64,000 nucleotides of DNA from a virus, in IMG/VR virus record IMGVR_UViG_3300029951_000013, positions 1 to 64,000 of that record, one strand, 5' to 3'. A program made the translations under genes and the position numbers. Shown here in pieces: positions 5,128 to 61,599 of the stretch. Numbering within the stretch: position 1 is the stretch's first letter; each line of letters starts with the position of its first letter. The notes below the pieces were generated by a model. The model was not told where the DNA came from. It was given only the letters and a program-made list of their open reading frames with translations, and made no database searches.

Positions 5128-5774
5128 TGGGCCAGCACCGGACCAACCGCACTCCCCCTCTGACCGTGAGCGTCGCGATACCCACGATCCCCGGGCGCGA
5201 GGCGCTGCTCCGCCGGGCGGTCGCCTCGGTCCACGCCCAGGAGCGCCAGGCCGACGCCATCCTGGTCGAGCGGGACGCCGGGCGCACCGGTGCCGCGCAG
5301 GCCCGGAACCGTCTGCTGGAGCGGTGCACCACCGATGTGGTCGCGTGGCTGGACGACGACGACCTCCTGCGGCCGAACCACCTCAAGGCCTGCCTGAGGG
5401 TCCTGACCAGCAGCCCTGGGACGGACCTCGTCTATCCGAGGCCCAGAATGTCCGGCGGCCAGGACCCCACCGCGACCACCTACCGCGGCCGGTTCCCGGT
5501 CGAGCCCTGGGGCATCCGCTGGCAGCCCGAGCTGGAGCGGCACCTGCGCACCCACGGCTCCTTCATCCCCATGACGCACCTGGTGCGCACCGACGCCGTC
5601 CGCAAGGCAGGCGGCTTCCCCGAGGGCCGCACCCTGCCGACCGGCCGCTACCAGGGAGAGGACGAGCGGTACCTGATCGCGCTGCTGGACACCGGTGCCC
5701 GGTTCGGACACCTGGATGCGGTGACATGGACCTGGACGGTCAACCCGGACAGCACCGCCGGGAGGCCCGCGTGA
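5127..5774 (+). CDS. Glycosyltransferase family 2 (GT-A)
   Basis: VSVAIPTI, ARNR, WLDDDD and EDE motifs. Confidence 0.85.
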   Translation: MGQHRTNRTPPLTVSVAIPTIPGREALLRRAVASVHAQERQADAILVERDAGRTGAAQARNRLLERCTTDVVAWLDDDDLLRPNHLKACLRVLTSSPGTDLVYPRPRMSGGQDPTATTYRGRFPVEPWGIRWQPELERHLRTHGSFIPMTHLVRTDAVRKAGGFPEGRTLPTGRYQGEDERYLIALLDTGARFGHLDAVTWTWTVNPDSTAGRPA

Positions 5775-13065: not shown

Positions 13066-13992
13066 ATGAAGGCCCTGGTCTTGGGCGACAAGGGGTTCCT
13101 CGGCCGCCACTTCGCCGCCGAGCTGGAGCGGTGCGGCTACGACGTCGTCGGCCTGGACACCAAGCGCAGCCCGGCGCAGGACTGCCGGCCCTGGTTCAAC
13201 TCCAGTGCGGCGGCACGGGCCGGGTACTTCGACCTGGTCGTCCACGCGGCGGCGGTCGTCGGCGGCCGGGCGAAGATCGACGGTACTCCGCTGGCCACGG
13301 CGGTGAACCTGAGCATCGACGCCGAGATGTTCCGATGGGCAAGCCTCGCGCGGCCGGGCCGGGTGGTCTACTTCTCCTCTTCGGCCGCCTACCCGGTCGA
13401 CTATCAGACTGAGCACGGCCACAAGCTGCTGTACGAGCACGCGCTGAACACCAGGGACCATCCGGAGTACACCGTCGGGTACCCGGACCAGGTGTACGGC
13501 TGGACCAAGGTCGTCGGCGAAGTGCTGGCCGGGAAGCTGCGCGAGGCTGGTGTCCCGGTCACCGTGGTCCGGCCGTTCTCCGGCTACGGCACCGACCAGG
13601 ACGACGACTACCCGTTCCCGTCGTTCATCCGACGGGCGCGCGAACGGGGCCGGGCCGACGGCGGAGTGTTCCGGATCTGGGGCGACGGCGGGCAGGTGCG
13701 CGACTTCATCCACGTGGACGACATCGTGGCCCGGACGCTGGCGGTAGCCGAGGACGGCGCGGCGGAGCCGGTCAACCTGTGCACTGGGCGGGCGGTCAGC
13801 TTCAACCAGCTGGCCCTGGTCGTCTGCCAGGAGGCCGGCTGGGACGACCCGGAGTACACACACCTGCTGGACGCGCCGGTCGGAGTCCGGTACCGGGTGG
13901 GCGACCCGTCCCGGATGCGGCGGCTGACGGGCGACTCCCCGTTGATCAGTCTGGAGACTGGCATACGCCGGGCGCTGGACGCCAGCTCCTGA
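13066..13992 (+). CDS. NAD-dependent nucleotide-sugar epimerase/dehydratase
   Basis: GDKGFLG, SSSAAY, YGWTK, IWGDG.QVRDFIHVDD; AGGAGG RBS. Confidence 0.9.
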   Translation: MKALVLGDKGFLGRHFAAELERCGYDVVGLDTKRSPAQDCRPWFNSSAAARAGYFDLVVHAAAVVGGRAKIDGTPLATAVNLSIDAEMFRWASLARPGRVVYFSSSAAYPVDYQTEHGHKLLYEHALNTRDHPEYTVGYPDQVYGWTKVVGEVLAGKLREAGVPVTVVRPFSGYGTDQDDDYPFPSFIRRARERGRADGGVFRIWGDGGQVRDFIHVDDIVARTLAVAEDGAAEPVNLCTGRAVSFNQLALVVCQEAGWDDPEYTHLLDAPVGVRYRVGDPSRMRRLTGDSPLISLETGIRRALDASS

Positions 13993-14004
13993 ACGCCGCT
14001 CTAT

Positions 14005-14037
14005 CGAACCCCCGACCCCTCCTGGGCCGGGGGTTCG
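14005..14037 (+). terminator. Stem-loop terminator candidate
   Basis: CGAACCCCCG...CGGGGGTTCG just after the epimerase stop. Confidence 0.55.
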
Positions 14038-14144
14038 CGCATGCCTTGACACCGCATCGAATTCCGAGCAGGCCCGGCGGAGAATCGTCCCGATAGAGTC
14101 TCTTCGCCCGGAAGCCTAAAGAATCTTGATATATCCCTATCGTT

Positions 14145-14217
14145 GCAGCTCAGAGCGTTGCAGTTGGGTTGACGGCTTCATTGGGTCATGAGATAGTTAA
14201 ATCAAGCAAGAGAGAAC
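14145..14217 (+). promoter_or_regulatory. Strong sigma70/HrdB-type promoter, copy 1 of a 73-bp direct repeat
   Basis: TTGACG(14169)-17-GATAGT(14192); 72/73 identical to 17299-17371. Confidence 0.8.
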
Positions 14218-14246
14218 AAAACGAACACCGACCAAAGGAGAGCCCG

Positions 14247-14768
14247 ATGAGCACTTACGAGATCACTGTCAACTACACGTTCGACAGCGCTTCCAAGACC
14301 GTCGTGTACGCGACCAACGCCGAGAGCATCAACGAGGCCGAGCAGAAGATCTCCGCAGACTTCACCCGCACGCACATCGCCGGAATCGAGTTCACGACCT
14401 CCTCCCGCTTCATGCCCGAGTTCGCCGCAGTCCCCAGTACTGCCCGTCAGATCGAGTCCGGGATGCGCATCGACCTGACCGGGACCGACTCCGCCTCCCC
14501 CGCGCGTGACTCCGGGATCGACCGTCGCATCGTCCGCAGTGTGCGACAGGGACGCAAGTACACCTATCTGACTCTCGCGAACTACTCGATCGTGCGTCTG
14601 CTGCTCGACGCCCCCGTGAACACTCTGATCGAGACCCAGTTCTGCTCCGAGTGCACCGCAGAGCTTCCCGTCACCGAGATGACCCACGACGACGAGAACG
14701 ACCTGTACTTCTGCGCCGCTCCCGACAACGACCGCCCGTTCTGCGCTGACCTTCCTGCGAGCGTCTGA
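14247..14768 (+). CDS. Hypothetical early protein (SH3-like segment and C-terminal Cys cluster)
   Basis: AAAGGAG RBS; first gene after the promoter. Confidence 0.7.
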   Translation: MSTYEITVNYTFDSASKTVVYATNAESINEAEQKISADFTRTHIAGIEFTTSSRFMPEFAAVPSTARQIESGMRIDLTGTDSASPARDSGIDRRIVRSVRQGRKYTYLTLANYSIVRLLLDAPVNTLIETQFCSECTAELPVTEMTHDDENDLYFCAAPDNDRPFCADLPASV

Positions 14769-14779
14769 CCCGCACACAG

Positions 14780-15080
14780 CCCCGCGTCGTGAACCCGACG
14801 TAGCCGCGAAAGCAGCGCGAGGCACTTGATCAACAGCCAGAAAGAAAGTCGCCGGCGACAGAGAGCCGGACATCGCAGAGATAAGGCCCCCGAAAAGGCT
14901 AAGGCTGCGAGGGACGGGAGAGCCGGCGAACCCGGTAGGCGTCCATGAAGAACAGCGCGACCGGCCGACGACGTAGCGAGCGTCCGCCGAGGGAGACCAG
15001 CAACCTCCTGAACCACCGTTGCACGACCTGCGACAGACTCCCGCCCGAGGCGTATCGAGCCCGGCGGTTCCGAGTGTCGC
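14780..15080 (+). ncRNA. Putative large multi-branched structured RNA
   Basis: Many nested stems with purine-rich loops; no RBS-led ORF. Confidence 0.5.
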
Positions 15081-15089
15081 CCGCACCAA

Positions 15090-15141
15090 GCCCCTGGACA
15101 CGCCGCGAGGGTGCCCGATCGAATCGAGCCCGGGGCACGCA
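15090..15141 (+). ncRNA. Minimal tRNA-like element
   Basis: GCCCCTG/CCGGGGC stem; GCCCG-ATCGAAT-CGAGC T-arm; ends A-CGCA. Confidence 0.4.
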
Positions 15142-15170
15142 CCGACCGACCACTGACCAAGGAGCAGACC

Positions 15171-15344
15171 ATGAAGGCACGCAAGGGGTGGAAGGCGATC
15201 GACAGCACCGGGACCAGCGGGTTCGGCGACTGCCCGAAGTGGGCTGAGGTGTGCCGCAGGGGCGGCATGACCGTGGTCCCGGTCCGGATCTACGGCAAGG
15301 GCGCGTGGCCCTGCGGATCCTGCCTCTACGGCCTCGTCCACTGA
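15171..15344 (+). CDS. Small Cys-containing hypothetical protein
   Basis: Start-associated motif plus AAGGAG RBS. Confidence 0.65.
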   Translation: MKARKGWKAIDSTGTSGFGDCPKWAEVCRRGGMTVVPVRIYGKGAWPCGSCLYGLVH

Positions 15345-15348
15345 ACCG

Positions 15349-15558
15349 GTGAGCTACCCCGGCATGTTCGACGCCTCGTCCCGGACCGTGCGCGAGGTCC
15401 GGCCCGGGATGCACGTCGACCTTCCCCGCCTCGGCCGCGTCCGCATCGCTGACGTGGACCACCGGCGCAGCCGCAGTGCCTCCTACCTCACGCTGGCGAA
15501 CGGCGAGACTGTCCGTCTCGCGTCCAGCCGCCGCGTTACCGTTCTGTCCGACCACTGA
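15349..15558 (+). CDS. Small SH3-like hypothetical protein
   Basis: Shares GM..DL...YLTLAN...VRL with 14247-14768. Confidence 0.55.
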   Translation: MSYPGMFDASSRTVREVRPGMHVDLPRLGRVRIADVDHRRSRSASYLTLANGETVRLASSRRVTVLSDH

Positions 15559-15598
15559 CCCGCCCCGCCTTTGCACGTCCTCGACCAAGGAGCAGTCC

Positions 15599-15946
15599 AT
15601 GCGTATCACCCAGAGCCTCGTCCGAGAGATCGCCGACCACGCCGAGAAGTTCACCGGTGGCCGGTTCCGGATGCAGGCCATCGGCGGCGACATCGGGTAC
15701 GGCACCCGCTACATCGACGGTGTCGAACAGCTGGTCTGGCTCGGCAAGCACGGCAGTCGCGAAGCCGCCGCCTACTACATCGGCGCGATGCTCGGCTGGG
15801 CCCGGGAGACCGGGACGATGATTCCCGACGACGTCCGCCGCCTGTGCCAGTCCGTCCAGGATGAGTACCGTCGTACGCCCTCCGCTGAGCGCGAGGAGGA
15901 GCGCGGACGCGAGACCGCCGGGTACAGGGCTCAGTCCCGCCGCTGA
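15599..15946 (+). CDS. Hypothetical protein
   Basis: CGACCAAGGAG RBS. Confidence 0.7.
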   Translation: MRITQSLVREIADHAEKFTGGRFRMQAIGGDIGYGTRYIDGVEQLVWLGKHGSREAAAYYIGAMLGWARETGTMIPDDVRRLCQSVQDEYRRTPSAEREEERGRETAGYRAQSRR

Positions 15947-16068
15947 CCGATCCAGCCGCCGCTCATCGACTGACCCAGGAGAACTGACCATGGCACAGAG
16001 CGCGCTAACCCGTTGTCAGTGCCCTCTGGCACCGTGAGACCGACGACCATCCGACCGAGGAGCACAGA

Positions 16069-16401
16069 ATGATCACTACCAGTTACGGCAGCTGGAACAA
16101 CCACACCCGCTACAACACGAGCCCGGGTGCGGACATCCTCGACGTCGTCAACGGCGGCGGCAGCGAGTGGGTGGAGCGCATGCAGGCCAGCGGTGCCCTC
16201 GACGCGGTCGAGACCGAGTGGCGCGCAGCCATCCAGGCCGCGCTGCCCGAGGGCGTCACGCTGATCGGGGACGAGTTCATCGGCCCGCACTCCTCCGACC
16301 CGGCGTACACCGAGGCGATCCGGGAGAGCGACTTCAAGGAGATCATCGACGGCATCGACCTGAACGCGATCATCGAGCGCCACGACGTCGACAACGCCTG
16401 A
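16069..16401 (+). CDS. Acidic hypothetical protein
   Basis: GAGGAG RBS; typical codon bias. Confidence 0.7.
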   Translation: MITTSYGSWNNHTRYNTSPGADILDVVNGGGSEWVERMQASGALDAVETEWRAAIQAALPEGVTLIGDEFIGPHSSDPAYTEAIRESDFKEIIDGIDLNAIIERHDVDNA

Positions 16402-16490
16402 CCGGCCAGTCCCGCGCCGTGCACTACGGCGTACGCAGCGAAGCAGCGCGGGGCACGCAAGATCCGACCACCGACCGGGGAGTACCGACC

Positions 16491-16718
16491 ATGCTGAATG
16501 TCGTCCAGGACACCCACTCGTACGACCCGTCCTCGAAGCACGCTTATTTCGAGGAAGCTGGCGTCACGTTCGAAGTCCGGTTCACCGTGGGCATTGGGTA
16601 CCCCGGCTCCGTTAAGGCGCTGCACCCCTACGAGCACCTCGGGATGATCGACTGGGGCGACGAAAGCCGTGCCCGAGAACTCGCACGCACCTACCTGGCT
16701 GCTCGCTCCACGCACTGA
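16491..16718 (+). CDS. Hypothetical protein
   Basis: Start-associated motif plus GGGGAG RBS. Confidence 0.6.
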   Translation: MLNVVQDTHSYDPSSKHAYFEEAGVTFEVRFTVGIGYPGSVKALHPYEHLGMIDWGDESRARELARTYLAARSTH

Positions 16719-16755
16719 CCTGTTCGACCCGACCACCGACCAAGGAGTATCGACC

Positions 16756-17211
16756 ATGCAGACCCAGATCACCGACGACCTGCTGACCAAGTCCGTCCGG
16801 GCCATCACCCTGCGCGCGCCGTGGTCCGACTTGACCGCGCTGCGCGTCAAGGGGATTGAGAACCGAAGCTGGAGCACCAACTACCGCGGCCTGGTCCTAC
16901 TGCACTCCGGGCTCGCGGTCGACCGCCTGGCGTTCCGTGAAGCGCACGTGACCGCAGCGCTGCCCGCCGGCTACGACCCCGCGGCCAACGCCGGACGCGT
17001 CCTCTCCCTGAACCAGCTGGTCGACGTACACAAGGACACGGGCTGCTGCCGCCCGTGGGGCGAGGCCGGCGCCTACCACTTCGTCTGGGGGGAGGTCGTC
17101 CCGCTGCCCCGGCCGGTGCGCACCCGGGGCTTCCAGCAGCTGTGGATCCCCAAGGCGGACCTGCTGCTGGGCATCGTCGCCGAGACCGAGCGCGCCCGGC
17201 GCACCGCCTGA
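16756..17211 (+). CDS. ASCH-domain protein
   Basis: AITLRAPW......KGIENRSWST.YRG.VLLH and RGFQQLW motifs. Confidence 0.85.
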   Translation: MQTQITDDLLTKSVRAITLRAPWSDLTALRVKGIENRSWSTNYRGLVLLHSGLAVDRLAFREAHVTAALPAGYDPAANAGRVLSLNQLVDVHKDTGCCRPWGEAGAYHFVWGEVVPLPRPVRTRGFQQLWIPKADLLLGIVAETERARRTA

Positions 17212-17231
17212 CGCCGCATCGACGGTGCAGT

Positions 17232-17267
17232 GCCCCGAGACCGCTCCGGTGGTTTCGGGGCTTTCTT
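17232..17267 (+). terminator. Intrinsic terminator
   Basis: GCCCCGAGACC...GGTTTCGGGGC followed by TTTCTT. Confidence 0.75.
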
Positions 17268-17298
17268 GCTTAAAGAATCATGGACTTTCTGTAAAGTA

Positions 17299-17371
17299 GC
17301 AGCTCAGAGCGTTGCAGTTGGATTGACGGCTTCATTGGGTCATGAGATAGTTAAATCAAGCAAGAGAGAAC
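17299..17371 (+). promoter_or_regulatory. Strong promoter, copy 2 of the 73-bp direct repeat
   Basis: TTGACG(17323)-17-GATAGT(17346). Confidence 0.8.
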
Positions 17372-17431
17372 GAACGCAAGACCCAGAGCGAACGGGAGGC
17401 ATCCGTGAATCGGGTGCTGAACGAAGCGCCA

Positions 17432-17454
17432 CTCCTTGAGAACTGAACAGCGCG
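17432..17454 (+). promoter_or_regulatory. rrn-leader boxA-like element
   Basis: CTCCTTGAGAACTGAACAGCG resembles, from memory, the actinobacterial rRNA leader motif TTCCTTGAGAACTCAACAGCG. Confidence 0.6.
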
Positions 17455-17563
17455 TCCTTCCTCACCGAAGCGACAAAGACCGGACGTAGCGAGCCGGTCA
17501 GTCCGAAGTAGGTCCCCGGGGCGCGTGAGCCTGCACAACCGACCACCGACCAAGGAGAACCGC

Positions 17564-17773
17564 ATGCCGAAGTTCCAGTACCAGCCGGAGACCACCGCGT
17601 ACTACGCCGACCGCGTCGCCAAGGAGCTGGCCGCCGGCCGGTTCGTGGAGACCACCTTCGACCCGGAGGACGGGAAGATCACCGGTCTGGTCGGAGTCGA
17701 TCCGCACACCCCGTTCGCCGACCAGATCACCGCGAAGGCCGAGCGCCGCGCCGACACGCGCGACGCCCGCTGA
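17564..17773 (+). CDS. Hypothetical protein
   Basis: Start-associated motif plus AAGGAG RBS. Confidence 0.65.
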   Translation: MPKFQYQPETTAYYADRVAKELAAGRFVETTFDPEDGKITGLVGVDPHTPFADQITAKAERRADTRDAR

Positions 17774-17787
17774 ACCACCCGCACAAC

Positions 17788-17863
17788 GCCCCCGCCAGAG
17801 TGATGACTCCTCAGGAGAACAGCGTCGGACTCCAGCCCGTTCGAGTCGGGCCGGGGGCACGCA
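17788..17863 (+). ncRNA. tRNA-like element with no recognisable anticodon arm
   Basis: Perfect GCCCCCG/CGGGGGC acceptor stem; GCCCG-TTCGAGT-CGGGC T-arm; 72 nt to the discriminator A, then CGCA. Confidence 0.6.
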
Positions 17864-17907
17864 GTACCGCACGACCGATCAACGACCACTGACCAGAAGG
17901 ACCCGCC

Positions 17908-18255
17908 ATGCAGATGACCCCGCGCACCGCGCGCGTCCACCGCGCCGCCGCCCTGCTGCGCGCCCGCCGCTTCACCGCGAGCCTGCGCAAGGGCCGCTCG
18001 CTCGCCACCCACGTGATCGCCGCCGGGGTGACCGACCCCAAGGCCGTCTCCGCCGTCGCGGGCGGACTGCGCTCCGCTGCCCAGCGCCTGGGCGTCGCCC
18101 CGGTCCGGACCGCGCGCACCCGCCGCACTGTCAGGGGCCGCAGCCGCCTGCGCCGCGTCCAGCACTTCACCGCCGCTCAGGTCGCCCGCCTCGCCGCCTC
18201 GTACAAGCCACGCAAGCCGGAGTACGTTGCGGCTGTCATCCTGCTCACCGCCTAG
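17908..18255 (+). CDS. Basic hypothetical protein
   Basis: Start-associated motif plus AAGGA RBS. Confidence 0.65.
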   Translation: MQMTPRTARVHRAAALLRARRFTASLRKGRSLATHVIAAGVTDPKAVSAVAGGLRSAAQRLGVAPVRTARTRRTVRGRSRLRRVQHFTAAQVARLAASYKPRKPEYVAAVILLTA

Positions 18256-21063: not shown

Positions 21064-21306
21064 ATGATCGAGACATTGACCCCGATCGACCGGTCCGACA
21101 TCCGTCCCGGTGACGTGATCCAAGGTGTCGTCAAGAGCAGCATTCGCAACCGGACTGTTCGGTTGCGCGTGGACCGCGAACCCTGGGCGGTCGGACCCAA
21201 CAACACCTGTGTCACCGACGGCCGCTCCATCGAAGCTCTGATCACATCCACGCTGCACCTGGTGGACGGCGACTTCGAGACTACAAAGCTTCACGTACTG
21301 GACTGA
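21064..21306 (+). CDS. Small hypothetical protein (SH3-like start)
   Basis: GAGGAGAGG RBS; DIRPGDVI. Confidence 0.6.
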   Translation: MIETLTPIDRSDIRPGDVIQGVVKSSIRNRTVRLRVDREPWAVGPNNTCVTDGRSIEALITSTLHLVDGDFETTKLHVLD

Positions 21307-21325
21307 CCGCACGACCTGATCCACA

Positions 21326-21414
21326 GGACCGGCCCCGACGCGTGGCGGAGGGGCACCCGGAGAGACGGCACCGTACTGCACGCCGCGAGCCGGGTTCGAA
21401 TCCCGGCCGGTCCC
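21326..21414 (+). ncRNA. tRNA-like element, non-canonical D and anticodon region
   Basis: Perfect GGACCGG/CCGGTCC acceptor stem; CCGGG-TTCGAAT-CCCGG T-arm. Confidence 0.6.
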
Positions 21415-21452
21415 CTCCGCACGACCCGACCACCGACCAGAAGGAACACCTC

Positions 21453-21704
21453 ATGCTCGAACTCTCACCGGAGCAGATCGCCGTTGCCGAGCTGAACGGC
21501 TGGGACCTGGAGGAAGTCGCCCGCAACCAGGAGCGCAACCTCCGGATGTACGGACTGATGCGCAAGCACAGCAAGATGGCACTGCTGGGCATGGCCTACC
21601 GTGGCGGCCTCGCCGACTTCAACAGCCCCGCGAAGTGGACCAAGCAGGAACTGGCCGCCGTGGTGGCGGACCAGGAGTTCCGGAAGAGGGAGGTGCAGTC
21701 GTGA
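21453..21704 (+). CDS. Hypothetical protein
   Basis: Start-associated motif plus AAGGA RBS. Confidence 0.65.
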   Translation: MLELSPEQIAVAELNGWDLEEVARNQERNLRMYGLMRKHSKMALLGMAYRGGLADFNSPAKWTKQELAAVVADQEFRKREVQS

Positions 21705-23687: not shown

Positions 23688-24382
23688 CCGCGACCGTGCC
23701 GCGCGAGACCCTCAGCCTGGGAGCCAGAACCTTCCTGCGCACTCTGCTGGGGGCCGGGTGCGGCACGGTGGAGGGCTACTACCGCCACCGGATGCGCCTG
23801 CACGAACTGGCCTGCTCGCGCTGTGCGGCGGCTTTTGCGGAGCATCCAGGGCTGCCGCCGGTCCACCGGGACACCTGCGGCACTGAGAAGGGCTGGAGAG
23901 CGCACAGGTACCGGTCCGAACTCCCCTGCGGGCCCTGTGCACAGGCGCGGAAGGGGCACACCGTCCGGTACTGCGGCACCGAGAAGGGCTGGATGCTCCA
24001 CCGCCGGACCGGTGAGAAGCCCTGTCCGGACTGCCGTCAGGCCTTCAACGCCCGCAGGGGGACGCGCCGTGCCGGTGCACGCGCGGGACAAGAGACAAGA
24101 CGCCCGACCACTGACCAGAAAGGTTCTGCCATGAGCCAGAACACCATTCCCGTCCAGGCTGCCGGTCTGCGCAAGGGGGACGTCCTGTTCCAGCCGATCC
24201 CGACCGGGGTCCGGCCGGTGACCGTCGTGGACGTCGTGCGCACCGAGGTCTACCGCAAGGGCCTCCGGCTGCTCGGCGTGGAGATCCTCGGGGAGGAACT
24301 CGTCTCCGACGAGGGAAACCTCCGCAGCCGGGCGGTTCGGATCCTCTCCGGGGAGCGGGTGCTGTGGGACGTCCGGCGCTGA
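23684..24382 (+). CDS. Protein with three CGT..G...H....E..C..C repeats, in frame with a probable separate gene starting at 24131
   Basis: Repeats visible in the translation; internal start motif and RBS before ATG 24131. Confidence 0.6.
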   Translation: MTATVPRETLSLGARTFLRTLLGAGCGTVEGYYRHRMRLHELACSRCAAAFAEHPGLPPVHRDTCGTEKGWRAHRYRSELPCGPCAQARKGHTVRYCGTEKGWMLHRRTGEKPCPDCRQAFNARRGTRRAGARAGQETRRPTTDQKGSAMSQNTIPVQAAGLRKGDVLFQPIPTGVRPVTVVDVVRTEVYRKGLRLLGVEILGEELVSDEGNLRSRAVRILSGERVLWDVRR

Positions 24383-26836: not shown

Positions 26837-27897
26837 GCCCGCTCCAGCCGCAGTGCCTCGTCCCACACCTCCGCCCACCGCCACGCCTGCTGTTCGATCC
26901 TGAGCCCGTCTACAGCTTGCCGACCCTGGTCGGACAGCTCTAGGCGGGCTCTTTCGTCTGTCCGCAGCAGGTTCAGCTTCTGGTACCAGGTCCGGGGGCG
27001 CTCGGCGAGCAGGCCCGCCCCCAGTGCGTGGATGCGCGAGTACTCGATCCGGGGCGATGCCACCCACGGCACGCCCAGCGCGGACATCTCCAGCGGCTTG
27101 AGCCAGGACTTCGCCCGGTTGAACTTCGTGTCGGCCAGCGGCGCGATGCCGATGCCGATCCGGTTGACCGCCGCCGCCCATTCGTTGATGGACGGCGGAG
27201 CCTCGCCGGTGGGGTCGGCTCCGATGCCGAAGGCCGTGCCGCAGCCGTCCGGGATGCCGGTGACGTGGAACCGGCCGCCGTCGGCCCGGACCCGGGCCAT
27301 CGCCCCTCCCATGACCTGCGGGTCGTCCGGGTGGCTGGGTAGGTACGCGGGCCAGCCGACCAGGTCCGAGTCGGTGTGGGGCTGGCCGAAGTAGTGCTCC
27401 GGCAGGTAGTTGTAGAGGACCCGGCCGCGGCCGTGCCGGGCGTAGACGTCCAGCAGCGCCGGCGTGGAGACGGTCACCAGCGTGGCGTCCCGGCAGGCGT
27501 CCGCCAGGTACGCCCAGGAGTGCCGCCTGCTGTTCCTCGACTGCGGCAGTTTGGCGTACTTCGGGTGCATCGACTCGTAGGCCGGGTTCGCCGGGTTGAT
27601 CGAGGACAGGTCGTCGTCTATGTCCACGACCACGGCGATGCCCTTGGCCCGCAGGATCGGCACCGCCTGGGCCAGCCACGGGTGGGTGACCCGCTGGAGC
27701 ACGACCACGTCCATCTCGCCGGGGTCGACCAGGACGTCCTCGACCCCGTCCCGGTCGTTGACGACCAGCCTGATGTCCCGCTCGTCGGGGGCCAGCACCC
27801 GCACGTCATGGCCCTGCCGGGCCAGCACTCCGGCGGGCCAGATGATCCGGAAGTGGCCGCAGCCGAAAGTGTCCGCGGGGTAGCAGGTGACGCGCAA
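26803..27897 (-). CDS. GT-B fold (GT4-like) glycosyltransferase
   Basis: GCGHFRI.WP, VVLQR, DIDDD, TVST..L, IGIAPLADTKFNRAKS.LK.LE..ALG.P. Confidence 0.85.
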   Translation of the reverse strand: MRVTCYPADTFGCGHFRIIWPAGVLARQGHDVRVLAPDERDIRLVVNDRDGVEDVLVDPGEMDVVVLQRVTHPWLAQAVPILRAKGIAVVVDIDDDLSSINPANPAYESMHPKYAKLPQSRNSRRHSWAYLADACRDATLVTVSTPALLDVYARHGRGRVLYNYLPEHYFGQPHTDSDLVGWPAYLPSHPDDPQVMGGAMARVRADGGRFHVTGIPDGCGTAFGIGADPTGEAPPSINEWAAAVNRIGIGIAPLADTKFNRAKSWLKPLEMSALGVPWVASPRIEYSRIHALGAGLLAERPRTWYQKLNLLRTDERARLELSDQGRQAVDGLRIEQQAWRWAEVWDEALRLERAQAGVAARTSA

Positions 27898-27946
27898 AGC
27901 CGGCTCCTTGGTCAGTGGTCGGTGAGGGGGCGTGCAGTGCCCCGGA

Positions 27947-59226: not shown

Positions 59227-61599
59227 CTAGCCGATGGCCCGGGAGGCAGCCTTGCTGCCGAGGCCGGACCGGCCGGTACCCCTGGAAGTGGTGTGCACCA
59301 GTTTCTGCCCCCAGGCGTTCCAGACGCTGTTGTGCACCAGGATCCCGTTGGCGAAGAACTCCGGAACTTCCTCCACCGTCAGGTCATAGACCGGCCGCCT
59401 TCCTACGGGCTCGGAGATGCGCTCCACAGGAGTTGGAGCAAGTCGCGGGCACGGGCCGGTACTTGCTCTGCATGAACCCGGCGCCGCAGACGGGGCATTC
59501 AGCAGGCACCCTGTACCGGTCAGCCCGGTCGGACATACGCCGGTTGCAGGCTCGGGAGCAGTGCCGCGACTCTCCGGCATGCCGGGTCGAGTAGGTCTTT
59601 CCGCAAGCCTCGCAGGCCGAAGTGCGGGCCTCCCGGTTCGCGTAGCTGGCAGTAGCCTGCTGGGAATGCCAGGTCCGGCCTTCGTCACTCCGGTGCCAGT
59701 CCACGGCGAGGCCCCGGATAGCGTCCAGGTGGGCCAGCCACTCGGCGCTTCCCCGGTCGAAGTCTCCGGGATGTATCCGGGAATGCTCAAGGCGGGTGAC
59801 GCACTGGAGGTTGGACGGGTCGTTGTTGAGAGGATCGAAGTCGACGTGATGGATGACGCAGCCGCGAGGTACACCGCTCGCTCCGTGAGCCGCCTTCCAC
59901 ACCTCGGTATGGAGTTGACCGACGCCCCGAAGCCGTTTCCCGTCGGCGTAAGCGGTGTAGTAGACCCGGGCCGACCTGTGTCCAGATGCCGGATTCCGGC
60001 TGTAGGTGATGCCGTTGAAGACCACGGACTCCTTCTCGGATGCCATGCCCCCAGTCTATCGCCCCAGACTATGGCGTCCAGTCTTACGAACCCTTTGCCG
60101 AGCACCCAGACCCGATGGTTGGCCGTCCCGGTAAGGGGGCCCGCAGGGGTGTCCACGCGGATGACCTCCTCGCTGGAGGACGTCATCCAGGAGCGCAGAA
60201 CGCGCCGCCAGCCCTGTCGCGTCATTACCTGGTCGTCCGTAGTCACCGCTTCGATCGGGACCGGCCCCCGGCGGGTGGTGACCAGGGTCCCCGCTACAAG
60301 GCAGGCGTCCAAGTGGTCCGGAGACCAGTCGAGTTCGGGGTACCAGGTGGTCATCTGATCTTCCAAAACTTCGAAGACGCCGGCATGCCTCCAATACCCC
60401 TGTGAGGTCAGAGCGCTGACAGGCTGCGCCCGGATCGCCTTGCCCCGGGTGGCCGTCACGATCCGGATGGGGATGTTCACCCCCATGGCCTCGGCGGCCG
60501 TCCGGAGAGTCGAGACGCACATGGCCCCGCCGTAGTTGGTCTCCACGAAGATCTCGTCCGCGTTCCAGTCCACGGCCGCACTGACCGCCTTCCGGCCCCA
60601 CCCGTCCGGAGACAGGTGGCAGCTCCGGTCGTCCAGGACGAAGCCCTGGTGGCGGGCCCTGGACGGAGGGAGCGTCAGACCTTCCTCAACGGGCATCACC
60701 GGAGGCAGTAGCAACCTCTTCGACTTGCCTACCACGATGATCCCCTGCTCCCCGGCTCCACCTGACGGGTCTACTCCGATCGAGATGCGGCCGAGATCCG
60801 GGACCGACCCTGCGTCGATGCGGGCGGCATCAATCGTGGACCGCTTCCACAGGGCGTTCTCGTCCTCGTCAATCACCAGGCCCAGGAGTTCCTGCCGACC
60901 GAGTTGCGTCCCGCCGTACGCGTCCTCCAGTGCTTCCCTGATCGACAGCGGCAAGTGCGGGTTGTCGTACATGGACGCCCGCGTAACGACGGTGTCCCGG
61001 ATGCCGTTCGCTGCCAGTTTCCGGATCAGGTCCCGGGGCTTGGGTGTGGTGGACCCGACCCAGTGCGGGTGCGGCCCGGCGCGCAAGCCGAACCTCATGT
61101 GGTCCCAGGCGTCCGCCAGGTACCGCCAGGCAGCTAGCTCCTCAGCCCAAACAGAGCACCGGTTCCCGCCAGAGCGGAGGCGCTCCACGTCATCGGCACT
61201 GTTGGCGCCGAACAGCTTGGCCTCGGAACCGTTCGGCCAGATCACGGTGAGCCCGCCGGGCCGCTGCACCATCCGGGCCGTCGGGTCGTGGGCGCGTATT
61301 CCGGACGGCCCTGCGAAGCAGGATGTGGCGGCATCGCCCAAGGTCGGCGCGATGATGCCGACCCAGTGCGGGACGGGGCCGGGCAGGCATGCGGGGCCCT
61401 TGACGTGCTCCACGATGTGGTTGGCGCAGACGTCCGTCTTCCCGGCACCGCGTCCGGCGAGCAGCAGCCAGCCGTACCAGTCCCCCGGCGGGGTCACCTG
61501 GTGCGGCAGCGGGGTCCAACGCGGCGAGCGCAGCTCGGCGACCCGCTGGGCCAGCAGGTCGGCCGCCTTGCGGGCGACTATCTCAGCGTCACCGGGCAT
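59227..61599 (-). CDS. terL: Terminase large subunit containing an intein
   Basis: AGRGAGKT Walker A, WAEE Walker B, TTPKP, GVDPS, ETNYGG; spliced product restores SPDHLDA|SVW. Confidence 0.92.
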   Translation of the reverse strand: MPGDAEIVARKAADLLAQRVAELRSPRWTPLPHQVTPPGDWYGWLLLAGRGAGKTDVCANHIVEHVKGPACLPGPVPHWVGIIAPTLGDAATSCFAGPSGIRAHDPTARMVQRPGGLTVIWPNGSEAKLFGANSADDVERLRSGGNRCSVWAEELAAWRYLADAWDHMRFGLRAGPHPHWVGSTTPKPRDLIRKLAANGIRDTVVTRASMYDNPHLPLSIREALEDAYGGTQLGRQELLGLVIDEDENALWKRSTIDAARIDAGSVPDLGRISIGVDPSGGAGEQGIIVVGKSKRLLLPPVMPVEEGLTLPPSRARHQGFVLDDRSCHLSPDGWGRKAVSAAVDWNADEIFVETNYGGAMCVSTLRTAAEAMGVNIPIRIVTATRGKAIRAQPVSALTSQGYWRHAGVFEVLEDQMTTWYPELDWSPDHLDACLVAGTLVTTRRGPVPIEAVTTDDQVMTRQGWRRVLRSWMTSSSEEVIRVDTPAGPLTGTANHRVWVLGKGFVRLDAIVWGDRLGAWHPRRSPWSSTASPTAGIRHLDTGRPGSTTPLTPTGNGFGASVNSIPRCGRRLTERAVYLAAASSITSTSILSTTTRPTSSASPALSIPGYIPETSTGEAPSGWPTWTLSGASPWTGTGVTKAGPGIPSRLLPATRTGRPALRPARLAERPTRPGMPESRGTAPEPATGVCPTGLTGTGCLLNAPSAAPGSCRASTGPCPRLAPTPVERISEPVGRRPVYDLTVEEVPEFFANGILVHNSVWNAWGQKLVHTTSRGTGRSGLGSKAASRAIG
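59329..60303 (-). mobile_element. Intein (325 aa) in TerL
   Basis: N-terminal CLVAGTLV, block B T.NH, C-terminal VYDLTVE...FFANGILVHN followed by Ser. Confidence 0.9.
59384..60046 (-). CDS. HNH endonuclease with Zn fingers, nested out of frame in the intein
   Basis: LH..VW...G...IHHVD.DPLNN.P.NLQ.V...EH..IH; four CxxC/CxxxC motifs. Confidence 0.85.
   Translation of the reverse strand: MASEKESVVFNGITYSRNPASGHRSARVYYTAYADGKRLRGVGQLHTEVWKAAHGASGVPRGCVIHHVDFDPLNNDPSNLQCVTRLEHSRIHPGDFDRGSAEWLAHLDAIRGLAVDWHRSDEGRTWHSQQATASYANREARTSACEACGKTYSTRHAGESRHCSRACNRRMSDRADRYRVPAECPVCGAGFMQSKYRPVPATCSNSCGAHLRARRKAAGL

Follow-up and report, generated by a model that had tools for sequence, protein, structure and literature searches.

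What does the long gap between the first two genes of an early operon encode in a virus whose host is presumably a high-GC actinobacterium? The gap belongs to an IMG/VR virus record of 88,895 base pairs (bp) and about 69% GC (IMGVR_UViG_3300029951_000013), the first 64 kilobases (kb) of which are referred to here as the window. The original prediction regarded positions 14780-15080 of the window as one multi-branched structured RNA of about 300 nucleotides (nt), possibly a ribozyme or a put-like antiterminator RNA. Our analysis suggests that the 402-nt spacer between the two genes is instead a chain of independent local hairpins, two of which form a family with a third hairpin in the leader of the second early operon. 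We consider this small repeated hairpin element to be real and without described relative, and we give roughly an even chance to the interpretation that its members are modular cis-acting elements of the mRNA, the GUAKCGA loop of which would be read by a regulator of early transcripts. The spacer and the three hairpins are located as follows.

14769-15170, plus strand: untranslated intercistronic spacer of 402 nt between gene 1 and gene 2.
14962-14989, plus strand: hairpin hpA, apical loop C[GUAGCGA]G, with a bulged A (covariance model score 32.4 bits).
15041-15067, plus strand: hairpin hpB, apical loop C[GUAUCGA]G, within the last domain of the original prediction at 15031-15081 (33.5 bits).
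17476-17501, plus strand: hairpin hpC, in the leader of the second early operon (34.3 bits).

It had already been noticed in the original prediction that ACGTAGCGAGC recurs behind the second promoter, and indeed this 11-mer is present as an exact copy at 14971 and at 17484. Taken alone, a shared 12-mer says little, since random pairs of 402-nt and 206-nt windows share one in 153 of 5000 trials. A third, diverged copy was found on aligning the second leader to the gap, and a search of both strands of the 88,895-bp genome for CGTA[GT]CGAG returned exactly three occurrences (14972, 15051 and 17485), all of them on the plus strand. Each copy caps, as its apical loop, a predicted hairpin of 9-10 bp with a folding energy of -12.9 to -14.5 kcal/mol, and all three are located in early untranslated RNA on the transcribed strand. 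hpA, hpB and hpC have in common the 7-nt loop GUAKCGA, which is closed by a C-G pair, and a bulged A on the 5' side, and they differ in the sequences of their stems. In the alignment of the three sequences 19 of 21 cells pair, compared with 21-39% in controls in which the alignment was slid, and three of the seven pairs change on both sides. When both untranslated regions were shuffled 300 times with preservation of the dinucleotides, the largest family of hairpins with a like loop had one member in 291 cases, two members in nine cases and never three. The covariance model R1, which was built from the three hairpins and which they therefore match by construction, gives its own members 32-34 bits, and the next best match in the genome reaches 19.7 bits. 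The 40-nt flanks of the hairpins are 53-65% alike, as are random pairs (56% +/- 6). From this we conclude that the hairpins are islands of similarity and not the result of a recent segmental duplication or a by-product of the duplication of the promoters.

How the remainder of the spacer is organized was investigated with a partition-function fold of 14740-15200, for which helices with a pairing probability (P) above 0.3 are reported. Besides the hairpins of the family, the following elements were obtained or, in the case of the fourth, correspond to the stem of hpA.

14784-14789 / 14796-14801, plus strand: local hairpin GCGUCG/CGACGU, containing the CGTCG/CGACG stem of the original prediction (mean P 0.86).
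14849-14856 / 14922-14929, plus strand: closing helix UCGCCGGC/GCCGGCGA of a local domain that encloses the hairpin 14873-14910 (P 0.82).
14873-14878 / 14905-14910, plus strand: TCGCAG/CTGCGA hairpin (P 0.98), with a cap GGCC/GGCU (P 0.97).
14967-14970 / 14981-14984, plus strand: GACG/CGTC around the loop (P 0.86), with an outer helix CGGC/GCCG (P 0.90).
14991-14995 / 15005-15009, plus strand: local hairpin GGGAG/CUCCU (P 0.71).

The helices predicted with the highest probability in the spacer are without exception local, and most of the stems named in the original prediction are among them. This includes the inner part of its last domain with CCGCC/GGCGG (P 0.70) and GGC/GCC (P 0.95), while the GCGAC of this domain pairs in context with GUUGCA (P 0.78). 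The GC-GAAA-GC stem is ambiguous because of a competing CGCG/CGCG helix at P 0.50. The enclosing GTCGC...GCGAC helix and the GGACG/CGTCC arm are missing from the ensemble at P>0.3, and the helix UCGCCGGC/GCCGGCGA is found instead. Compared with dinucleotide shuffles, the gap as a whole has a z-score of +0.39 on the plus strand, with 65 of 100 shuffles folding as well, and of +0.62 on the minus strand; for 14780-15080 the z-score is -1.03, with 30 of 200 shuffles equally good, so that the energy of the spacer is not below that of shuffled sequence as it would be for a discrete structured non-coding RNA. Among sub-windows, which were picked after the stems had been seen, 14846-14963 reaches -2.27 (2 of 200 shuffles), 15029-15083 reaches -2.71 (3 of 200) and 14964-15030 gives +0.92. 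Since the junction-forming closing helices are absent and no excess stability was detected, one fold of about 300 nt is unsupported, and the thermodynamic model rather describes a series of separate hairpins.

Searches for known RNA families point in the same direction. Rfam 15 gave no match at gathering score across the 64-kb window and none in the gap at E<=10, neither within 14100-17950 nor on the 421-nt stretch 14760-15180, and no paralogue or homologue of the local domain 14849-14929 was found. Consequently a ribozyme, as proposed at first, or a member of any described family is not supported. Likewise, ARAGORN called no tRNA-like gene in the window and the Rfam tRNA model had no match at E<=10, which leaves the suggested tRNA-type signal for 3' processing unrecognized by both. 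Readings as an RNase P-like or tRNA-like RNA, suggested by motifs, were dropped, as neither Rfam at E<=10 on the 421 nt nor ARAGORN returned anything. That 14780-15080 represents one discrete multi-branched RNA, either a ribozyme or a put-like RNA acting without protein and released by processing at the tRNA-like element, could be argued from the non-coding character of the region, from the two sub-windows that beat their shuffles and from the 3' neighbour, which has the look of a T-arm placed on an acceptor-like stem and has further copies in the genome. However, besides the missing helices, the missing excess stability and the empty searches, the arrangement of the hairpins also disagrees with a compact two-stem element, because hpA and hpB are separated by 52 nt with another hairpin between them and the second leader has only a single copy. 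We therefore consider a single multi-branched RNA to be very unlikely, and such a large RNA is unnecessary to explain the sequence.

Next to the question of folding stands the question of whether the spacer is translated. The genes on either side of it are listed here together with their coding statistics (third-position GC content, GC3, and codon log-odds).

14247-14768, plus strand: gene 1, 173 amino acids (aa), GC3 0.86, +1.03 bits per codon, an orphan.
15171-15344, plus strand: gene 2, 57 aa, rich in Cys, GC3 0.93, with nine relatives at E<=0.001.

Flanking genes have a third-position GC content of 0.85-0.97, and no comparable phase is seen in 14770-15150. According to a codon log-odds score trained on 15 confident genes, the neighbouring genes score +0.56 to +1.23 bits per codon, whereas all open reading frames (ORFs) and long frames of the gap score -0.02 to -0.44 on both strands. 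The 100-aa ORF 14945-15247 on the plus strand, the translation and conservation of which had been named in the original prediction as speaking against an RNA, scores -0.29 bits per codon, overlaps gene 2 out of frame, and has no relative in an index of 5.8 billion proteins and no Pfam or PHROG family. We rejected it as a gene, as well as the Arg/Lys-rich 40-aa ORF 14826-14948 on the plus strand, which scores -0.27 bits per codon, has a TTG start just 3 nt past GAGG and matched no Pfam family and no PDB chain at E<=10. It could still be argued that one of these ORFs is a concealed small protein gene. Both frames are open, GC at the third position of the 100-aa ORF rises to 0.75-0.82, the product of the 40-aa ORF is highly basic and presumably resembles short RNA-binding peptides, and another likely small phage gene at 21065-21307 is likewise poor in codon usage (-0.83). 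Measured against the scores of the neighbours, the poorly placed start of the shorter ORF, the overlap of the longer one and the lack of homologues or families, we regard a hidden gene as highly improbable. From its codon statistics we conclude that the gap is non-coding, as originally proposed. The frame 21065-21307 itself is likely an 80-aa gene with a good Shine-Dalgarno sequence and atypical composition, which may be a recent acquisition or no gene at all.

Comparative evidence for the spacer is restricted to its own genome. No homologue of the region was found among phages, plasmids, IMG/VR, JGI metagenomes and GTDB genomes, and a search of IMG/VR with the promoter pattern revealed no relative of the region. 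The neighbouring genes did not lead further. Gene 1 has neither a homologue nor a family, and its best score in a protein atlas (0.82) gave no lead. Gene 4 has relatives, and in the two metagenome loci that carry it (L007 and L008) the upstream DNA is unrelated; a search of IMG/VR with gene 4 did not yield a relative of the region. Six loci with gene 2 relatives (including L009-L013) were examined, and none of them shares the upstream region. In L010 and L013 the gap before the relative is about 80-93 nt according to crude gene calls; in L011 a called plus-strand gene (2673-2900) ends about 100 nt upstream, and there is no untranslated gap of 400 nt; and in L009 no plus-strand gene was called upstream of the relative. 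Elsewhere in the genome, relatives of the portal protein are just 45-51% identical and on short contigs, and the phrog_3193 protein has one relative at 30%. The same sequence is present in 24 listed peat-metagenome runs, with no RNA run among those listed, and Logan contigs of four peat runs have no differing letter over the gap. For the early region 13900-18000, contigs from four peat samples likewise showed no differing letters over the compared pieces; the lack of differences points to a population that is clonal across the samples.

This raises the question of whether the spacer has any function, or whether its stems arose by chance in a sequence of 63-68% GC and the three hairpins are left over from an old duplication or from a small selfish repeat. 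In favour of this explanation are the absence of an overall excess in folding energy, the absence of conservation beyond the own genome and the short gaps before the relatives of gene 2. In addition, the promoters themselves are duplicated, as each of them is located within a 116-nt repeat, the copies of which are 85% identical.

14169-14197, plus strand: early promoter P1, sigma-70-type, TTGACG and GATAGT separated by 17 nt, with a TG.
17323-17351, plus strand: early promoter P2, with hexamers identical to those of P1.
14771-15000, plus strand: A-rich, T-poor and purine-rich tract (30% A, 6-7% T, 65-66% purine).

On the other side, the loop has been kept while stems and flanks differ, the copies lie 3/3 on the transcribed strand in early untranslated RNA, and a family of this kind appeared in none of the 300 shuffles. 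Furthermore, the tract 14771-15000, which accounts for the A-rich joiners of the original prediction, has an AT skew of 0.58-0.67 in comparison to a genome mean of 0.02 (standard deviation 0.18) and ranks second in the genome for this skew; a composition among the most extreme of the genome argues for some constraint. Taken together, a spacer without function appears rather unlikely. The most A>T-skewed stretches of the genome are the ends of the record (241-400 and 88238-88400).

The hairpins could alternatively work through their stems, either as tail-less terminators or attenuators or as RNase III-type elements for processing or stability between early cistrons. Several stable local hairpins within a long untranslated gap would fit this explanation, and PMC8355165 contains the proposal that clusters of hairpins terminate transcription. 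Against it, none of the plus-strand hairpins of the gap is followed by a T-tract, as an intrinsic terminator would be, and mycobacterial RNA polymerase requires a U-tract according to PMC3993855. Above all, a function of the stems leaves unexplained why the sequence of the loop and not that of the stems is kept, and therefore we consider it unlikely. On the minus strand, the terminator-like hairpins 14899-14886 and 14869-14852 have T-rich tails, and an antisense RNA ending at them was considered and rejected, because the number of such sites is within chance (four found compared with 2.1 +/- 1.5 expected, both sites of the gap being on the minus strand). Neither a minus-strand promoter nor a minus-strand gene that would need termination was found near 14852-14899. 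A canonical terminator is located at the end of the operon.

17232-17261, plus strand: intrinsic terminator closing the first early operon, a 13-bp stem with a T-tract.

The first early operon consists of P1, gene 1, the spacer, genes 2-7 and this terminator, which divides it from the second. hpA and hpB are situated 700 nt from P1 and about 760 nt from the start of its transcript.

hpC follows, at a distance of 23 nt, an element that resembles the boxA of ribosomal RNA (rrn) operons.

17435-17454, plus strand: rrn-type boxA-like element, CTTGAGAACTGAACAGCGCG, the sole copy in the genome.

In three Streptomyces genomes the core of this motif is present in two copies that share a contig and are separated by about 2 kb; the upstream one precedes 16S, and the downstream one is located in the 16S-23S spacer, just before 23S. 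The core (TTGAGAACT-S-AACAGCG) is also found in the early leader of the Streptomyces prophages L011 and L012 (2444-2462). Moreover, the boxA 17-mer is carried by 35 IMG/VR contigs (L030-L064), 28 of which have a GC content of at least 0.54, and most of these copies are leader-like and followed by hairpins. The use of a host-type boxA may be widespread in actinophages. One of these contigs, L051, which has no protein homology to the phage, combines the same boxA core with a hairpin about 40 nt further on, GGUCC[UGACGUAGCGAU]GGACC, whose 5-bp stem carries a 12-nt loop holding ACGUAGCGA, the 9-mer of hpA and hpC. This hairpin is on the minus strand at about 5702-5723, that is, 58-79 nt after the start of boxA. 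A second boxA contig, L044, contains the 11-mer within a coding gene and was dropped.

Based on these data we favour the interpretation that the hairpins are cis-acting elements recognized through their loop. The 402-nt stretch belongs to the first early mRNA as an untranslated segment between two cistrons, and a protein of the phage or of the host would recognize the GUAKCGA loop on nascent or mature early RNA. The bound protein would then control elongation, as at a boxB-like antitermination site, or the processing or stability of the early message. That the loop is kept on varied stems indicates recognition of the single-stranded loop of a hairpin, because an operator in double-stranded DNA would keep its arms as well, and from the conservation of the loop a protein that reads it on early transcripts is expected. 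Since hpC adjoins a host-type boxA, a boxB-like role in processive antitermination is the most specific reading, which we nevertheless consider unlikely; roles in processing or stability may apply as well. With the shared motif being an element at the RNA level and having a third copy, an antiterminator-type role, as put forward in the original prediction, may hold.

Several observations weigh against a loop-reading regulator and particularly against antitermination. There are only three copies in a single genome, the family was defined after having been seen, and with three rows only the shuffle control of the alignment is weak, 41 of 500 shuffles reaching the observed values. In the 48 loci that are related or contain a boxA, R1 has no match at E<0.05, and its best E in the three Streptomyces genomes is 0.25. 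L051 is one of 37 boxA-bearing loci scanned (the 35 IMG/VR contigs, L011 and L012), in 633 kb of which the 9-mer occurs nine times on both strands, so that about 0.07 are expected in the 133 nt past each boxA; as a single case with this expectation by chance, L051 is suggestive only. hpA and hpB lack a convincing upstream boxA. Two look-alikes in the spacer (about 14823-14838 and 14943-14959) were rejected, as they need a 4-nt gap and substitutions and such matches number about 18 in the genome. No RNA-binding protein was identified among the products of the neighbouring genes. Finally, downstream of the spacer there is one canonical terminator, 17232-17261, and on the plus strand of 17.3-29.7 kb no further terminator with a strong stem was found, the sole other site being 26936-26950 with a stem of 5 bp; with one canonical terminator downstream, a need for antitermination is not evident.

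A more far-reaching version of this reading is that hpA, hpB and hpC are boxB-type sites of a lambda-N-like processive antitermination system in an actinophage, in which leader 2 would hold a complete nut site, the spacer would be nutR-like and an orphan protein made early would act as the antiterminator. Candidates for this protein may be the products of gene 1, of the 69-aa gene (17564-17773) that opens the P2 operon and even of the Arg/Lys-rich 40-aa ORF upstream of hpA; none of the three has a family match. We consider this version unlikely. If it were true, the order of boxA and hairpin seen in L051 would point to a broader class of nut sites in actinophages that has not been described before. 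Our literature search, which left subscription journals largely outside its reach, turned up no paper on nut-like sites or on the use of boxA in actinophages, and little seems to be published on how the timing of early genes is controlled after initiation in high-GC actinophages. The hairpin whose loop is conserved occurs in both early transcripts, with one copy next to a host-type boxA, and provides a small and directly testable handle on this timing.

Apart from the hairpins, the spacer contains pieces that are found in other early intergenic spaces.

15111-15138, plus strand: GUGCCC/GGGCAC hairpin of a 'tRNA top-half-like' module, beyond 14780-15080 and common to 17835-17863 and 21379-21424.
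15145-15170, plus strand: gene-start cassette CCGACCACUGACC-AAGGAG-N6 before ATG, the same cassette preceding many genes on both strands.

The T-arm-like hairpin of the tRNA-like module was recognized by eye and has one C.A mismatch. In the copy at 21389-21405 the T arm looks canonical, yet ARAGORN calls no tRNA there. Over its 3' third (15021-15170) the spacer is collinear with the intergenic stretch 21309-21452, which precedes the gene at 21453, and the two have in common GCACGACCTG and CACGCCGCGAG (a 10-mer and an 11-mer), the T-loop-like hairpin and the CCGACCACYGACC-Shine-Dalgarno cassette. These shared pieces indicate that the gap is assembled from modules, some of which are common to other early intergenic spaces. 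With regard to further repeats, 14810-14825 resembles 16441-16456 (15/16), and the 3' sides of three intergenic hairpins share a CGGGGCACGCA end (15131-15141, 16449-16459 and 17854-17863) just 5' of the C-rich cassette. The C-rich motif itself, CCGACCAC(C/T)GACC, immediately precedes the Shine-Dalgarno sequences of numerous genes on either strand, with about 30 copies at no more than one mismatch in 88.9 kb (15145-15164, 16463-16484, 16728-16747, 17538-17557, 17881-17900, 21426-21445, 24104-24117, 27903-27923 on the minus strand, and others). It could serve to enhance translation, mark a processing site or act as a signal specific to this phage.

Regarding the genome as a whole, many small plus-strand genes follow from 14 kb onward, and the minus strand of 29-62 kb encodes a tape-measure protein, a portal protein and a large terminase with an intein. 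In the terminase gene (59227-61599, minus strand) the intein is indicated by matches to Hint and intein-splicing domains. The two ends of the record are near-identical (241-400 of the window and 88238-88400 of the genome), which suggests a terminal repeat or an assembly overlap of a genome that is circular or permuted.

The hairpins can be compared with several known types of elements. RNase III hairpins of the T7 type and tail-less terminators act through their stem, and the latter are reportedly present in the early region of phiC31, judging by the title of a report by Ingham (1995). Like these elements, the hairpins described here are stable and located between early phage cistrons; in contrast to them, hpA, hpB and hpC have a conserved apical loop and stems that differ. 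The put RNA of HK022, with which the spacer had been compared from the beginning, is a cis-acting RNA in early transcripts. It is present once per early operon, where two neighbouring stem-loops form a compact unit right behind the early promoter. The hairpins would share with it the cis-acting role in early transcripts. Unlike put, they are not two adjacent stem-loops, given the 52 nt between hpA and hpB, their distance of 700 nt from P1 and of about 760 nt from the start of its transcript, and the single copy in leader 2. Based on the covariance searches, the hairpin family appears to be one without described relative in Rfam 15.

Two boxA-containing systems are closer. The leader of rrn operons, which directs antitermination, comprises boxB, boxA and boxC, as described in PMC10250234. 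In leader 2, the boxA-like element has the motif that precedes 16S and 23S in the three Streptomyces genomes. The differences are that the spacer 14769-15170 has no such boxA and that the hairpin family was not found in these genomes (best E 0.25). The lambdoid nut site is composed of boxA and of a boxB hairpin that is bound by N, according to PMC2800207 and PMC2724277. Compared with it, the hairpins of the presumed actinophage have a loop of 7 nt, GUAKCGA, which is unrelated in sequence and sits above a bulged A; one spacer contains two copies; a boxA is missing next to hpA and hpB, whereas hpC has one 23 nt upstream; no N-like protein was found by family searches; and the host is presumably a high-GC actinobacterium. 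On the other hand, hpA and hpB follow the first gene of their operon, and nutR of lambda is also positioned after the first gene of its operon. As in the lambdoid phages, a short hairpin with a conserved loop is present on the transcribed strand of both early operons, and hpC comes shortly after a boxA with the host-type rrn motif.

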